Shown: positions 335-18,839, counted from the stretch's first letter. The stretch: DNA of 21,467 nucleotides from Escherichia phage vB_EcoS-611R1 (ON470586.1); one strand, 5' to 3'. The notes: generated by a model from the letters alone, not told the origin. Program-made: numbers and translations.

Positions 335-3300
335 TCAGGCACTGCATAATCCTCCGTCCCGACGTGATGACTGCATAATTGACACAACCCTGCTGTCGAT
401 CAGATCCACCAGTCCCCTGGCTGAGCGCGCATCTATCTCGCCATTGCTCCCTTGATTCTGAATGCTGATGTGATACACGGGAGAATAAACAAATCCACCG
501 CCACCATTCACATTTCCAATGGCCCTGACCCCAAGAGAGCCGTCCGCTGCCCGTGTCAGTGGCATGATTGCTTCAGGCCCGGCCTCGCCCATCAGCCCGG
601 CACCTTTCGCAAAAGCAAAATACGTCGGGGTATCCACAATGGTGTTACTGTAAGCACTCAGATTTGCCGATGTATAAACACCACCTTTTGCGTTTGCCAC
701 TGCACCGGAAAGCCAGTCGCCGACTGTACCAAGCCATCCTCCGGCACCGGACATGCTTTTGGAAAGTGACTTCAGCCCGTTAACGATGGCAGCGTTCATC
801 AGAATTTTTGAAACTTCCTGGAGAATTGAACTCCCCCAGTTTCTCCAGTCCACAACATTTCCGGCCAGTGCATCGGAAATATTTGATACCAGTCCGTCCA
901 TAGTGGAAACGACAGCATCTGCCGCCTGCGAAGCATAATCGGTGGCACTGTCTGCCCAGTTGGTCAGCCCCTCCTGGAGTCCTGCATTCCAGTTATTACG
1001 TAAAGCATCGGCCTTTGCATAATAATCCTGCTGATCGCTGAGACGCTCTTCCAGATATTTTTCATTCAGAGATTTTTCCTGTTTCCACAGGGCTTCTTCA
1101 ATTTCTCCGGCCTGATACTGTCTCAGCAGCTCGTTATTTTTCTGCTCAAACTCCTGCCGGATGCTCCACATTTCCTGAAGTCGTTCACGCATCCGTGAGC
1201 CTTCACCATATCCCAGTAACTGAGCCTCATTTGATGCTCTGACACTGGCATTACTGTCCGCCAGACTGCTCTCATACGCAGCAAGCTGCTCACGAATCTT
1301 TTTCTGGTCGATGAGTGCTGCATTCTGCAAAAGCGTTTTTTTCTGCGCTTCTGACAGGGTTGATAATTCGCCCTGGCTGACCTGATATTTCATCTTAGCC
1401 AGTTCAGTATTCTGCCCTGCCAGTGCTATTTGCTCTTTTTGCTGTTTAATCAGTTGCTTATAAGTATCTTCTATTTTTTCCGCTTCGGTCTTTTTATGCG
1501 CTTTGGGTTTATTTGCCTGGTTATTTCGCCATGCATCCAGTGAGTTATTTATATAATTCAGTCTTGCTGTCTGATACGCCTCTCCCACAAAGCCGAGATC
1601 ATCCGCAGCATAACCCAGGCGGGCACGCTCACGAGCTTCCCCCTTCAGGCGGGACAGAGCCAGTTCGCGCTCGCTGTTATTCAGTGCGGTCTGCTGTTTA
1701 TCATCCAGGGTTGCCTGTGGTAGCCGTAACGGTACATTCACCAGCCCCTGTCGCTGCTGAAGTAATTCATTACCGAGCCCGAGAAGGCGATTAAACTCGG
1801 TATGCTGCCCATTCATGATCAACAGGGACTGATACGCTTTGTTTTGTTCCGCTGCCTGTTGACGGATCAACGCCACCCGTCGCTCCTCCAGCCCGGCAAG
1901 CACATCCTGAATGGATTGCGCTTTGCCCTGCATTTGAGTGAGGCGAGACTGTTCAACTGCCAGTTGATTTGTTGCTTCTGCAAGCCCTTCTGTGACAGTT
2001 TTTACCGACGTCATGTGGTTAATCATAAAACCGTTATCGGTTGTCCAGCCCGGGTTTGCCAGCACATACTGATAGCCAGCAATTTTTTCCTGTAAGGATT
2101 TAATCTTACTTTTCTGCTCGTCAATTAACCTGTTTTGCTCCTTCAGTGCCTGTCGCGTCTTTTCCTCATTATCTGACGCTTCAGGAAGCGACATTGCCGA
2201 CGTTTTCTGGCGAATTTCGTCGATTGTTGCGGCATACTGTCGTGCAGATTCTCTGGCCTGCTCCTGATTCTGATACATCGTGTACCAGGCCGCAGCCCCC
2301 AGCATGACGAGTCCCGGCACACCACCAACCAGCCCCAGCGCGCCACTTAATAAACGACTCCCCACTGACGTAACATTATTCAGCGTTGTCTGTGCCGCTG
2401 TTCTGGCCGCAATATTACGGGTAAGTGACACCTGGGCAGCTGTCAGCTTCGCTTCTGCTGCGGCCTGCCTTTCGGTACCGCGAGCAGCAACAACCGCCTG
2501 TTGCGCACGATAAACCGCCGCACGCGCCCTGGCGGTTGCTATCTGTGTCCCCCGAAGTTGCACTTCAGCAAGAGCCACTTCGTTTCTGGCTGCAGTAATT
2601 AATCCGGCAGTTGCAGATCCAGCAGACGACGCCATATTGCCAAAATATCGGGCTACCCCGACGGCAACCAGAGCACCAGCAGCGGTTGCCACGGTGTCAA
2701 TATTGCCTGCAATACCATTCAGCACACCGGAGAGCGTCTTCGTCACTCCGCTTGCCTCGTTCGCACCACCAACCCAGGCCATAAAGGCGTTTTCAACTTT
2801 GGTTGCAGAGGATGAAACCGTATCAGGCATTGCTGCATATTCATCACGCAACGCCCCAAGCTGACTAATCAGTGCAGGAACAACCTTATCAGCGGTCAGT
2901 TTTCCGTTATCCGCCATGGCCTTCAGATCCTTACGGGCAACCCCCATTCCCGCAGCCAGCGCACGAATAACACGATCGCCGTTCTCATTCACCGAGTTAA
3001 ACTCTTCACCGCGCAGCACTCCCTGCGCCAGTGCCTGACTGAACTGCGTGATCACCGAACTGGCTTCTGCTGTACTGGCACCGGATAATTTCAGGCCCGT
3101 GGAGATCGCCTCGGTGACTTTCAGTACCTCCTCAGAACTGTAACCATACTCCCGCATGGAAGCTGCAGAACGGGCAAAAAGGCTGGCGTTATCAGAAAAC
3201 GCCGTCCCCGTTCTCTGGCTGATCGCCATTAATTCACGCTGTGATGACTGAAAATCATCACTGGACTGTGAGGCCTGCTTCAGACGGGCATTTACTGAAT

Positions 3301-15439: not shown

Positions 15440-15445
15440 GCATGT

Positions 15446-15475
15446 AAAAAGGCCCCAACACATGTGCGTGGGGCC
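15446..15475 (-). terminator. minus-strand intrinsic terminator between the tRNA cluster and the holin
   Basis: Minus-strand RNA: stem GGCCCCA/UGGGGCC around an 11-nt loop, followed by UUUUU (plus-strand AAAAA at 15446-15450). Confidence 0.45.
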
Positions 15476-15675
15476 TGAGAGTATACATGGTTTCAGTCAA
15501 CTGCATGGTGCCGTGTGCCTCCCGGTGAATTCAGTACCAGCACCTGAATCCGCGATTATCCCATATACCTACTCGCTGATTGCCCCTCCGCACAGGGGGA
15601 TTCACCATGCCAGTTTCTTTTGACAAACTCCCCGCAAAACAGACAACTGTCAACCGTCTGAATTGTGAGACATTT

Positions 15676-15888: not shown

Positions 15889-15965
15889 TGGTGGCCCTTG
15901 CTGGATTTGAACCAGCGACCTGGCGATTATAACTCGCTCTCATCATTTAGCTAAAATGGCTGGGG
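15889..15965 (-). tRNA. tRNA-like element, ileZ/ileX-like, possibly degenerate (pseudo-tRNA or atypical tRNA-Ile UAU)
   Basis: The 3' half matches tRNA-Ile2 (ileX) as I recall it (..GGTCGCTGGTTCAAATCCAGCAAGGGCCACCA). The anticodon arm is about 4 nt short relative to ileX (GAGTTATAATCGCC) and the acceptor 5' strand (AGCCATT) mispairs at two positions. Confidence 0.4.
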
Positions 15966-16085: not shown

Positions 16086-17030
16086 ATGATTTTTCTCAAG
16101 AATGGCGAAAGTTTTATTCGCGTGAATGACTGGGCAGAAATTCAGGCGAGAGAGTCTTACTATCCCAAATTAGAGTTAAATGATCAGCAACTCTCTGACG
16201 TTTTTGGTTACTACGATGACCTACCAGAGGAAATTCCATGTGGAAAATCAAATTGCCGCAAAGGGCATAAAAAGGGATTTCTGGTAGTTACGAAAGAAGG
16301 ATTTGAAACGAATATCGGCCATGTATGTGGAACTAATGTTTTTGGTATAGCATTTGATAATTTAGCAATAGAACTTTGCAGAAAAGCAGATTTCCATCGC
16401 TTACTTACCGCACTTAAAGAGGCAAAAGATGATATTTTTAGCTATTACAAACTCAAAGCCAAAATCGAATCTGGGCGTCCATCACTAACTGAGGTTGCTC
16501 ATAGAATACTTGACATGAAAGACCCTAAAATCATCGGGCGTGCGGCTTATCAAACATTGAAAAAGATGGCTGCTTCTGGTGATGGGCGTGTTTTCCGCTC
16601 AAGATTAAAAAATACAGAAGAGCTAGAACTGGACGAAATTATGTCCCAGAAGCAAACAAGCGACTCAGCTCCAAAAGTTAACAACAAAAACAAAACCGTA
16701 AATGAACTTATTGGGGTAATACAATACCCTGAATGCTTGCTGAATGATTATGACATTGCTCTTCTTTATGAAAGAGATATAAAAATGGTTCTGGAAAAAT
16801 TAAACAAATGTACCCCAGATGAATTGACTGAAAGAGAGGTGTTGTCTTTTGGAATAAAGGTTTCAAGATTAAGAGAACGCTTTAACTTTGTTCAGGAACG
16901 CTTAGAAAAATCCAGGGTTTTTGCAACAAGAGAAAACCTTAAACCTTTACGTGCATTACTTAACATTCAGAAATCTGTAAGCAATAAAGACAAATTACTA
17001 TTTAAGAAATTTATGGAAAATTTACCATAA
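16086..17030 (+). CDS. uncharacterized protein (314 aa), AT-rich cargo gene in the Q-to-lysis moron hotspot
   Basis: Opposite strand to every flanking phage gene, with RBS AAGGA 7 nt before the ATG and a hairpin terminator right after the stop. Hand-counted GC is about 38-42% against about 52% in a capsid gene sample. The N-terminus has a Cys/His cluster (PCGKSNCRKGHKKG...NIGHVCG); the rest is Lys/Glu-rich and likely helical. I recognise no family. Confidence 0.75.
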   Translation: MIFLKNGESFIRVNDWAEIQARESYYPKLELNDQQLSDVFGYYDDLPEEIPCGKSNCRKGHKKGFLVVTKEGFETNIGHVCGTNVFGIAFDNLAIELCRKADFHRLLTALKEAKDDIFSYYKLKAKIESGRPSLTEVAHRILDMKDPKIIGRAAYQTLKKMAASGDGRVFRSRLKNTEELELDEIMSQKQTSDSAPKVNNKNKTVNELIGVIQYPECLLNDYDIALLYERDIKMVLEKLNKCTPDELTEREVLSFGIKVSRLRERFNFVQERLEKSRVFATRENLKPLRALLNIQKSVSNKDKLLFKKFMENLP

Positions 17031-17032
17031 TT

Positions 17033-17056
17033 AAAAAACCCGCTATAAAGCGGGTT
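17033..17056 (-). terminator. tR'-like intrinsic terminator (bidirectional hairpin)
   Basis: Stem AACCCGCT/AGCGGGTT (17037-17044 with 17049-17056), loop ATAA. On the minus strand it is followed by U6, a strong terminator for transcripts from the promoter downstream of Q. On the plus strand it follows the 314-aa gene's stop with a weaker T-rich tail. Confidence 0.6.
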
Positions 17057-17097
17057 CCGTGTTAATTTTTATATTGGCGCTAAACCCCATAATTAAA

Positions 17098-17127
17098 ATG
17101 ATACAAGACAATTTTATGCAAAGTCAA
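17098..17127 (-). promoter_or_regulatory. candidate late promoter (PR'-like) downstream of the Q-like gene
   Basis: On the minus strand: -35 TTGACT (plus 17122-17127), 18-nt spacer, -10 TATCAT (plus 17098-17103). It lies about 45 nt after the Q-like stop and about 40 nt before the tR'-like terminator, predicting a short roughly 60-nt leader RNA as in the lambda PR'-qut-tR' unit. Confidence 0.5.
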
Positions 17128-17166: not shown

Positions 17167-17982
17167 TCAGTAACTCGTTGCCTTCTCAAATTCTCTAGCC
17201 GCATGCCGCTCACCTTGATGCAGGATATCAATCAATTTTTCATAGAATGGTTTCCAATTGCGCGACCATGAAGACTGGTGCAGATCGGGAATGTATATTT
17301 GAATAGCTCGATGAACATTAGCTGATTTGATAGATACGAATCCCTTTCCACTACAACGCTCGCAGATTTTAAACACTGGCACACCACGCTCGCTTGTGGC
17401 TTTGCGGTCCAGTACCTCTCCCTTTCCACCACAACGACACCTGGCACTTATCACTCCCTTCCCTTTACATACATCGCAAACGACTGGTACAACTTCCGTT
17501 ACCTCTGTCCATTTTTCCCAGTCTGACGGTCGAACAGCACGGGAGCGACTGGCCCAATATGGTGCTTTACCCCATGGGTATGAAACCTTACGAATGACCT
17601 GCTTACGGGGTGTTAGTCCGGTACCACTGCAACTATGGCATGTTACGCTGGTGGCCGCCGATCGGGAATACTCAGCAAAAGCAAACTGAGCCAGTACCAG
17701 CATACACCAGCCAAATTCACCACCAGCTGCTTTACGCACATTCTTCGGTGCAATTTCCATCGCGTGACGCGCCAGCGCCTGGACTGCCATCTGCTCATCA
17801 GTCTTGCTGATACCGGCCTTCCCGAAGAAGGCCGCCAGGCCAAACCGCTCACGATTACTGGTGGTACCAATAGCCGCCATAACATCGGTGCCTGTAAGAC
17901 GTTCCGGAGAGGTTCCTTTCACATCGTCGCCGATATACATTCCCTGAGGACTGAAGTATTTTAGCGATGCCTCAAGCTTCAT
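17167..17982 (-). CDS. Q-like late antiterminator candidate with four CxxCxGxG zinc-finger repeats (QuuQ/YdfT-like)
   Basis: 271-aa ORF with the motifs CHSCSGTG, CDVCKGKG, CRCGGKG and CERCSGKG. It sits immediately upstream of the PR'/tR'-like unit and the lysis genes, and its start overlaps the stop of the preceding gene. The family name is from memory. Confidence 0.55.
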   Translation of the reverse strand: MKLEASLKYFSPQGMYIGDDVKGTSPERLTGTDVMAAIGTTSNRERFGLAAFFGKAGISKTDEQMAVQALARHAMEIAPKNVRKAAGGEFGWCMLVLAQFAFAEYSRSAATSVTCHSCSGTGLTPRKQVIRKVSYPWGKAPYWASRSRAVRPSDWEKWTEVTEVVPVVCDVCKGKGVISARCRCGGKGEVLDRKATSERGVPVFKICERCSGKGFVSIKSANVHRAIQIYIPDLHQSSWSRNWKPFYEKLIDILHQGERHAAREFEKATSY

Positions 17983-18839
17983 TATTCACACTCCCCAACC
18001 AGATTGAGAATGACCGCTGCACCGTCGTCTTCCATGCATTCACCCTTACCACTTGCCAGAAACCAGCGGCACACCTCCACGGCTTCAGCGCGTGTCACCG
18101 GTTTGATGGTTGCCAGCAATTTTTCAAGGTAGCGCTCGCGGTCATATACCGATTCGTGATGCTCAGAGTAACCAAACTCATCGCCCTGTTCTTTAGTTGC
18201 AGTGTGGCGAACACTGTAGAGCCAGTCCCAGTAAACGAACTCGCGAACAACATCAGACAGCGTATAAGGCTCAGGCAGCACATCGCGATATCCATCAACA
18301 AATGCCCGACGCTGTTCATCAATTTCGTTCATGCGGCTGCCGCCAATGCTTCCGGCTTTTTTCTCTGCCGCAGTCCAGCCCCAGAGATGATCGTTGATAA
18401 ATTTCTGGGAAGACCTGATGACCCGCTCTGCTTCCACATCTTCGAGCGCTGCTTCATAGCTACCAAACGTAGCCCTGACTGATGCCGCTTTTTTGATGTT
18501 CTCCCGGGCGTTCCTGATAACCTGCGCAGGGTTATCCATGCCGATGATGCCGAACGCAACCTGGAAAGGTTCGTAACCATTCGCCAGCAGATAACGCGAA
18601 TAGCGTTCCTGAGCCTCTTTTGGGGAAATTTTAATTTTCACCAGCGCAGCCTCAGCAGCATCCAGATGTGCGGGTTCGTTCAGACGGATAACCTCCAGCA
18701 CCCAAAGATAAGCATCAGTCTGCTTATGCCCGGTGATTCTCCGTTGCTCTGGCAGGGGCTTGATGTTTGCGAGGGCGGAGCTGTACGCTGCCGTCGGGAT
18801 GGTGAATAGTGCTTTATGTTCGTTATTATCAGTACGCAT
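17982..18839 (-). CDS. hypothetical protein (285 aa)
   Basis: ORF translationally coupled to the primase upstream and the Q-like gene downstream (shared-nucleotide stop/start overlaps). No motif recognised. Confidence 0.6.
   Translation of the reverse strand: MRTDNNEHKALFTIPTAAYSSALANIKPLPEQRRITGHKQTDAYLWVLEVIRLNEPAHLDAAEAALVKIKISPKEAQERYSRYLLANGYEPFQVAFGIIGMDNPAQVIRNARENIKKAASVRATFGSYEAALEDVEAERVIRSSQKFINDHLWGWTAAEKKAGSIGGSRMNEIDEQRRAFVDGYRDVLPEPYTLSDVVREFVYWDWLYSVRHTATKEQGDEFGYSEHHESVYDRERYLEKLLATIKPVTRAEAVEVCRWFLASGKGECMEDDGAAVILNLVGECE

Follow-up and report, generated by a model that had tools for sequence, protein, structure and literature searches.

Three families of Q antiterminators, unrelated to one another in sequence and fold, have been described, and the Q-lambda family corresponds to Pfam PF03589 (Yin et al. 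2022, PMC9388147). Lambda Q itself consists of a four-helix body with a helix-turn-helix (HTH; residues 61-113 and 153-207) and a zinc-ribbon arm (residues 114-152); residues 1-44 refold and take the torus/nozzle role, and residues 110-112, 117 and 122-126 contact the beta' zinc-binding domain of RNA polymerase (PMC9388147). The Q-binding element sits between the -35 and -10 elements (PMC4914094), and in lambda the hexamer AACGAT at +1 to +6 is the -10-like pause element, with GGG as the discriminator-like sequence (PMC4005639).

The window analysed here is the whole stretch of 21,467 nucleotides from Escherichia phage vB_EcoS-611R1 (ON470586.1), numbered from its first letter. On its minus strand, at 17167..17982 with the stop codon included, an ATG-initiated ORF of 271 aa encodes a lambda-family antitermination protein that is 100% identical to RefSeq WP_048956940.1, "antitermination protein". 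The first-pass annotation, made from the DNA alone, had taken this gene for the late antiterminator and had proposed a search of antitermination families as a check. That search, run with Pfam and PHROGs, returned PF03589 "Antitermination protein Q" at 171.4 bits (cutoff 26.7; E 4.6e-51) and a full-length match to phrog_127 "anti-termination protein Q-like" (E 4e-98). In a sequence search of the PDB with phmmer, the significant matches were lambda Q chains only, the best being 7ubm_Q (E 6.4e-33), and the alignment runs in two collinear pieces, query residues 1-123 against lambda 1-126 and 179-260 against lambda 115-197, taking in the N-terminal segment, the body and the arm. Foldseek likewise returned only Q-lambda entries (7ubn_Q, E 2e-8, TM 0.66), and the four-helix-bundle body with its HTH fold is present in the protein. 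The Q21 (PF06530) and Q82 (PF06323) profiles of Pfam gave no match to the Q protein at E up to 0.1.

These family and lambda Q chain matches, read with the family definition in PMC9388147, show the earlier remark that the protein is unlike lambda Q to be mistaken. The mechanism of the family, given in the same annotation as structurally uncharacterised, has been the subject of crystal and cryo-EM structures of free Q, of Q on its binding element and of loading complexes (4MO1, 7UBJ-7UBN; PMC9388147). The call of late antiterminator, on the other hand, is borne out by the two family matches, by the homology to lambda Q and by the PR'/tR'-like unit directly downstream. On sequence grounds, we are confident that the gene is the late-gene antiterminator Q of an E. 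coli lambdoid prophage, that it belongs to an eight-cysteine, phi80-like subtype of the Q-lambda family and that, by homology, it should work as lambda Q does. It is already correctly named in the databases and is an ordinary Q-lambda member, not a new kind of regulator; the finding leaves the genome annotation unchanged and concerns a textbook family with solved structures.

The position of the gene is in keeping with this assignment. Helicase, toprim primase, a 285-aa ORF and Q form a minus-strand run in which stop and start codons overlap or nearly abut, and since Q ends this run we regard it as the last gene of the early-right operon, placed 5' of the late promoter, the terminator and the lysis genes. 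The promoter-like and terminator-like sites follow directly 3' of Q on the same strand. The 285-aa gene (17982..18839, minus), immediately 5' of Q, has a stop codon that overlaps the Q start by one base; it belongs to phrog_6204 (unknown function) and is found at the same place in phi467 and in ENT39118, and domain searches with it returned nothing informative. PADLOC found no defence-system matches for Q or its neighbours.

In E. coli strain 19AR1724 the chromosome contains the window region at 100% identity, as part of a complete lambdoid prophage adjoining yecE. Given in window orientation, the prophage starts with integrase, excisionase, early genes, a LexA-family repressor, helicase, toprim primase, the 285-aa gene and Q, and goes on with two tRNA-Arg genes, holin, lysozyme, terminase, HK97-type head genes and tail genes; RefSeq annotates no second antiterminator in it besides Q. 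Defective prophages are frequent in E. coli, and a 314-aa gene lies in opposite orientation between tR' and the late genes, both of which would suit an inactive relic in a cryptic prophage whose motifs are conserved by recent descent and not by function. We consider a relic very improbable, as the ORF is intact and full length against phrog_127, the family-invariant residues are all kept, and neither the promoter nor the pause element nor the terminator is damaged, all three being conserved. The full prophage set of integrase, excisionase, repressor, replication, lysis, terminase, head and tail genes also speaks against it, as does the occurrence of the same Q type in the isolated phages phi467, AsXd-1, ENT39118 and a Klebsiella phage.

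After the Q stop codon, the minus strand carries in order TTGACT, TTGCATAAAATTGTCTTG, TATCAT, TTT, AATTAT, GGGG, TTTAGCGCC, about 20 nt and GGAACCCGC-TTTATA-GCGGGTT-TTTTTT. A consensus scan places a PR'-like promoter here, with TTGACT as the -35 hexamer (17122..17127, minus) and TATCAT as the -10 hexamer (17098..17103, minus), matching at 10/12 positions with an 18-bp spacer. Relatives have TTGACT or TTGATT in the first position and keep TAnnnT in the second (TATGCT, TACACT, TATTCT). Within the spacer lies TTGCATAAAATTG (17109..17121, minus), identical at 12/13 positions to lambda TTGAATAAAATTG and the sole match to the lambda 13-mer with at most one mismatch in the window, where 0.05 would be expected. 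The 13-mer ends 14 bp before the -10-like hexamer in the window and in lambda alike, and C-G-C occupies positions 16-18 from the start of the -10-like element in an identical register in both. We therefore treat TTGCATAAAATTG as a candidate Q-binding element, on the assumption that the 13-mer equates with positions 1-13 of Yin et al.; the lambda record NC_001416 carries no qut annotation.

Just downstream, AATTAT followed by GGGG (17085..17094, minus) is a candidate sigma-dependent pause element, resembling AACGAT+GGG of lambda and AACGCT+GGG of phi80. A putative Q-binding element between -35 and -10 and a putative -10-like pause element can thus both be recognised in the DNA. The nAnnnT plus G-rich pattern is kept in about 30 relatives. 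In the window, a terminator scan identified a hairpin, of which relatives have an equivalent with a T-run, as a tR'-like intrinsic terminator (17029..17058, minus) with a 10-bp stem and a U6 tail; its RNA folds at -20.6 kcal/mol (z -3.4), and 0/200 shuffles fold as well. Later terminator-like sites lie beyond tR' at 15700-15683 and 15345-15332.

An alternative promoter, TTGAGC-18-TAAAAT (17140-17111), in which TATCAT would become the pause element, was rejected because its TAAAAT reads TCCGAA in type-B relatives and is not conserved, whereas TTGAYT-18-TAnnnT and the downstream nAnnnT+GGG are. Between the -10 hexamer and the -10-like element there are 3 bp here, 6 bp in lambda and 7 bp in phi80. 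With so short a gap, a start at the usual distance would fall inside the -10-like element, giving a pause RNA of about 12-14 nt instead of the 16-17 nt of lambda, where +16/+17 is the pause site; the start site and the length of the pause RNA are uncertain, given that the promoter hexamers are shifted relative to lambda. A known sRNA at the PR' transcript was rejected, the Rfam matches being sub-threshold only (isrK, 17.9 bits against 50; Trp leader, 26.2 against 41). The isrK match (17033..17119, minus) is to a Gifsy-1 late-promoter sRNA and probably reflects a mere resemblance between promoter-proximal hairpins or terminators.

The layout of the control unit 3' of Q is conserved in the four phages compared (phi467, AsXd-1, Klebsiella ST11-OXA48phi15.1 and Cronobacter ENT39118) and in 27 enterobacterial genome loci. 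Four loci that seemed to have no promoter proved to have the same promoter type beyond 0.65-1.35 kb of inserted DNA. Extra DNA of this length between the Q stop and the conserved PR' was noted at the genome loci L011, L026 and L028, and Q and its target site are accordingly not always adjacent in the relatives. Two types of HTH can be told apart in this set. The HTH LHQSSWSRNWKP occurs with TTGACT and the spacer TTGCATAAA at 11/11 loci, and the HTH LHVRTWTRNWK(P/L) with TTGATT and the spacer TTGTCCGAA at 21/21, so that HTH type tracks spacer type without exception across 32 loci. In lambda, HTH (QPTWSRTVKP) and spacer alike come close to the type found in the window.

This association is what a cognate pair of HTH and binding element would predict. 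With fewer than 200 bp between the two features, linkage has a share in it and could produce it alone. The Q of phi467, which comes with the other type of spacer, is identical to the window Q at 212/216 N-terminal residues and at 24/55 C-terminal residues. In blocks of 102 nucleotides, the two genes agree at 99-102 positions until nucleotide 612 and at 57-62 thereafter, which indicates a recombination junction just after knuckle 4 and the exchange of HTH module and promoter spacer as one cassette. The mosaic segment inside Q corresponds to 17167..17334 of the window and to 2149..2331 of phi467 (L004). Being split between an N-terminal/zinc-ribbon part and an HTH/spacer part, the window Q and the phi467 Q are natural chimeras with which one could test which part of Q reads which part of the element.

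The Q translation contains nine cysteines, and a regular expression places eight of them in four glycine-rich knuckles: CHSCSGTG (knuckle 1, residues 115-122), CDVCKGKG (knuckle 2, residues 169-176), CRCGGKG (knuckle 3, residues 182-188) and CERCSGKG (knuckle 4, residues 207-214). The four CxxCxGxG repeats of the first-pass annotation are therefore three exact ones and a third knuckle of the form CxCxGxG, one residue short of the canonical spacing. All motif cysteines (8/8) and glycines (8/8) are invariant in 48 homologues of 67-100% identity, from which we conclude that the knuckles are real and under selection and did not arise by chance.

Their description as DnaJ-type did not hold up. Lambda Q itself has such knuckles (CRDCHGTG, CGRCKGVG), and in Pfam the DnaJ central domain (PF00684) reaches 27.1 bits against a cutoff of 32.7, with TIGR02349 at 23.6 against 377.2, both short of the threshold for membership. 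Pfam detected neither a J domain nor the DnaJ C-terminal client-binding domains in the Q protein at E up to 0.1, and DnaJ structures in the PDB gave no match by sequence, even with an arm-only query at E up to 10. The scenario that the annotation had itself named as its refutation, in which the Q position is taken by a DnaJ-like chaperone or by an unrelated zinc-finger protein, could draw on the CxxCxGxG motifs and on these weak sub-threshold DnaJ scores. With the J domain and the DnaJ C-terminal domain both missing and the protein strongly homologous to lambda Q over its full length, in sequence as well as in fold, we find this scenario scarcely credible, and the lambda Q homology, the sub-threshold scores and the absence of a PDB match to DnaJ together effectively rule out a DnaJ chaperone identity.

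The domain layout follows that of lambda Q with one addition. The N-terminal ~60 residues (17803..17982, minus) are homologous to the torus/nozzle segment that lambda Q places in the RNA-exit channel; they align to lambda Q residues 1-60, with GTDVMAAxG (here GTDVMAAIG) and G39 kept. AF2 gives this segment a pLDDT of ~40, a low confidence that is expected since the segment is disordered when free. [quoted passage not shown] This half of the helical body (17170..17334, minus) includes the HTH (…IPDLHQSSWSRNWKPFYEKL…) and aligns to lambda Q 154-197 (…IPNLTQPTWSRTVKPLYDAL…).

Between the two parts of the body lies the lambda-like zinc ribbon, or "Q arm" (residues 180-216; 17335..17445, minus), which aligns to lambda Q 115-153 and contains knuckles 3 (C182, C184) and 4 (C207, C210). 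These four cysteines stand opposite the zinc ligands C118, C121, C144 and C147 of lambda Q and are invariant, which points to a Cys4 zinc-ribbon arm in this protein as well. The hairpin between knuckles 3 and 4 (G.G..D...T...G..V.K.C.RC.G.G) is also conserved with lambda Q.

The addition is an insertion at residues ~111-179 (17446..17652, minus), a zinc-ribbon-like module made up of knuckle 1, a long beta-hairpin and knuckle 2. Its ~68 residues appear as a gap opposite lambda Q in three-way and seven-way alignments, and the loop of the hairpin reads KVSYPWGKAPYW..SRAVRPSDWEKW. The insertion site is bounded by the conserved YSRSAAT at the end of a body helix and by ARCR(D)C at the start of the lambda ribbon, exactly between the equivalents of lambda residues 113 and 115. 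In the arm-only AF2 model the insertion has a pLDDT of 74-84, and strands 111-114, 123-134, 157-168 and 177-180 flank knuckles 1 and 2 on both sides.

How widespread this form is was examined in a family set obtained by exhaustive search and reduced to representatives of 50%-identity clusters; 60 of these, of 180-300 aa, were aligned with the query, lambda Q and phi80 Q to give 63 sequences. Eight cysteines are found in 34 of the 63, only the last four in 17, and six in no intact sequence, so that the cysteines of knuckles 1 and 2 are jointly present or jointly absent across the family. The eight-cysteine form is thus the commoner one, accounting for about two thirds of intact Q-lambda-family clusters. 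The distance from knuckle 2 to knuckle 3 is fixed at 13 residues and that from 3 to 4 is 25-26, while that from 1 to 2 varies from 14 to 60. Among 249 matching phage records, 132 contain the long form as a single tblastn piece; phages with this form include ES18, mEp460 and Stx2c phages, and one such gene is annotated quuQ. The earlier impression that this Q carries something extra is thereby vindicated: none of the solved Q structures has the second pair of knuckles, yet this pair marks the majority form and is found in phi80 Q too, which has been studied experimentally.

For the extra ~68 residues, the most likely arrangement in our view is a second Cys4 zinc ribbon, separate from the lambda-type ribbon and inserted at its base. 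Two tandem ribbons, made by knuckles 1 and 2 and by knuckles 3 and 4, are favoured because knuckles 3 and 4 are homologous to the knuckles that share a zinc in lambda, because 1 and 2 co-occur and because the loop between 1 and 2 is variable. The protein could also be a Q antiterminator whose arm is a DnaJ-like V-shaped hairpin, with the knuckles forming an interleaved two-zinc domain in which 1 pairs with 4 and 2 with 3. The knuckle motif is indeed the DnaJ motif, the sub-threshold Pfam match to DnaJ_CXXCXGXG (residues 169-216, 27.1 bits) covers part of the arm, and the distance between knuckles 2 and 3 is invariably 13 residues. Yet the lambda Q homologues of knuckles 3 and 4 share one zinc (PMC9388147), the 25-26-residue hairpin between them is kept in sequence and length in the long form, and knuckles 1 and 2 come and go as a pair. 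A variable linker of 14 to 60 residues between 1 and 2, next to a fixed one between 3 and 4, would be awkward if both linkers were paired as in DnaJ. In the AF2 models, knuckles 1 and 2 each sit at the turn of a hairpin, and the long strands 123-134 and 157-168 are neighbours in sequence order, as would suit a separate ribbon. We regard interleaved pairing as a plausible but less than even prospect.

As the insertion falls between the equivalents of lambda residues 113 and 115, the extra ribbon would project from the interface with the beta' zinc-binding domain. We suggest, as a rather doubtful extension, that the ribbon, with its hypervariable loop, could be a functional module in its own right, for example through an added contact with the beta' zinc-binding domain, sigma region 4 or upstream DNA. 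If so, this contact might replace the -35-like TTGACT at the pause element of lambda, which is missing in the window phage and in phi80, and it might permit loading at the pause with a shorter nascent RNA. On that view lambda Q would be an outlier reduced in size, and for most family members the loading mechanism as published would be missing a part. Lambda Q, the member characterised by structure, has the shorter four-cysteine form, and no Q-loading complex seen to date shows where the second Cys4 module sits.

By homology to lambda Q, late gene expression in the prophage may be envisaged as follows. The HTH of the body and the lambda-like ribbon would bind TTGCATAAAATTG in the spacer of the late promoter TTGACT-18-TATCAT, and RNA polymerase still carrying sigma70 would pause at AATTAT+GGGG just downstream. 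Q would meet the paused polymerase there and contact the beta' zinc-binding domain and the flap-tip helix, as in the lambda model (PMC9388147). With NusA, the N-terminal segment (GTDVMAAIG, G39) would refold into a nozzle in the RNA-exit channel, and the polymerase so modified would read through the tR'-like hairpin (17058-17029) and later terminators to reach the tRNA, lysis and morphogenesis genes.

Several other features were observed in the late region. The 314-aa ORF (16086..17030, plus) is convergent with Q and wedged between the tR'-like terminator and the tRNA and lysis genes, and a Q-modified polymerase would therefore have to transcribe it antisense. It has 36% GC against 50% for the window and matches phrog_7003 (unknown function), with no match in Pfam, NCBIfam, PADLOC or the PDB by sequence; in related phages the cargo at this place is a different one. 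A full-length match to the STnc100 sRNA family of Rfam (15440..15639, minus; 128.9 bits, gathering score 47) falls within the late transcription unit, after the tRNA genes and before the holin gene. A third tRNA-like element (15892..15960, minus) lies 5' of the two tRNA-Arg genes; Rfam scores it as tRNA at 32.6 bits (gathering score 29), and ARAGORN made no call. A degenerate tRNA is one possibility, with a parallel in the tRNA clusters that Stx phages have 3' of Q.

Among known systems, Q21 (PF06530) and Q82 (PF06323), with which Pseudomonas AlpA is grouped for comparison, do the same job from the same gene position and share a promoter-embedded loading site and a sigma-dependent pause, with no sequence match to the protein described here. 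The cysteine-rich domain of DnaJ/Hsp40 (PF00684; DnaJA2 7ZHS, BSD2 6EKB) likewise has four glycine-rich CxxCxGxG-type knuckles. It differs in that the Q protein has no J or client-binding domains and that the Q arm is embedded in a DNA-binding helical body. The knuckles of Q are spaced 54/13/25, and those of E. coli DnaJ 17/22/14. Pairing in Q is probably tandem rather than interleaved as in DnaJ.

Lambda Q (4MO1, 7UBJ-7UBN) is ~40% identical over the alignable parts and has in common with the window Q the N-terminal GTDVMAAxG, the four-helix body with its HTH (…WSR..KP…), the Cys4 ribbon with CxxCxGxG and the C-terminal helix. The gene position, the near-identical spacer 13-mer and the -10-like element with GGG 14 bp downstream are also shared. 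At 207 aa, lambda Q is shorter than the 271 aa found here, where the insertion of ~68 residues between lambda ~113 and ~115 brings in two more knuckles together with a long hairpin, and knuckle 3 is CxxC in lambda Q, as against CxC. The lambda PR' region reads TTGACT-TATTGAATAAAATTGGG-TAAATT-TGACTC-AACGAT-GGG, with a -35-like TTGACT beside the pause element that the window phage does not have, and the PR' transcript to tR' is 194 nt in lambda compared with ~60 nt here.

The Q of phi80 and its binding element are reported to have been the subject of a genetic study by Guo and Roberts in 2004. Annotated in the phi80 record are pR', a Q binding site within the spacer and, further downstream, a terminator. 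The HTH region of phi80 Q differs from that of the window Q (…KKTAAYEQLQP…), and so does its annotated binding site, TCGCGGA. In its overall build, phi80 Q (gp17, YP_007947979.1; 269 aa, 41% identity) has the same eight-cysteine, four-knuckle architecture as the window Q, and the likeness is especially close within the insertion itself (KVSYPWGK.PYW..SRAVRPSDWE.W…C..C.GKGVIS).
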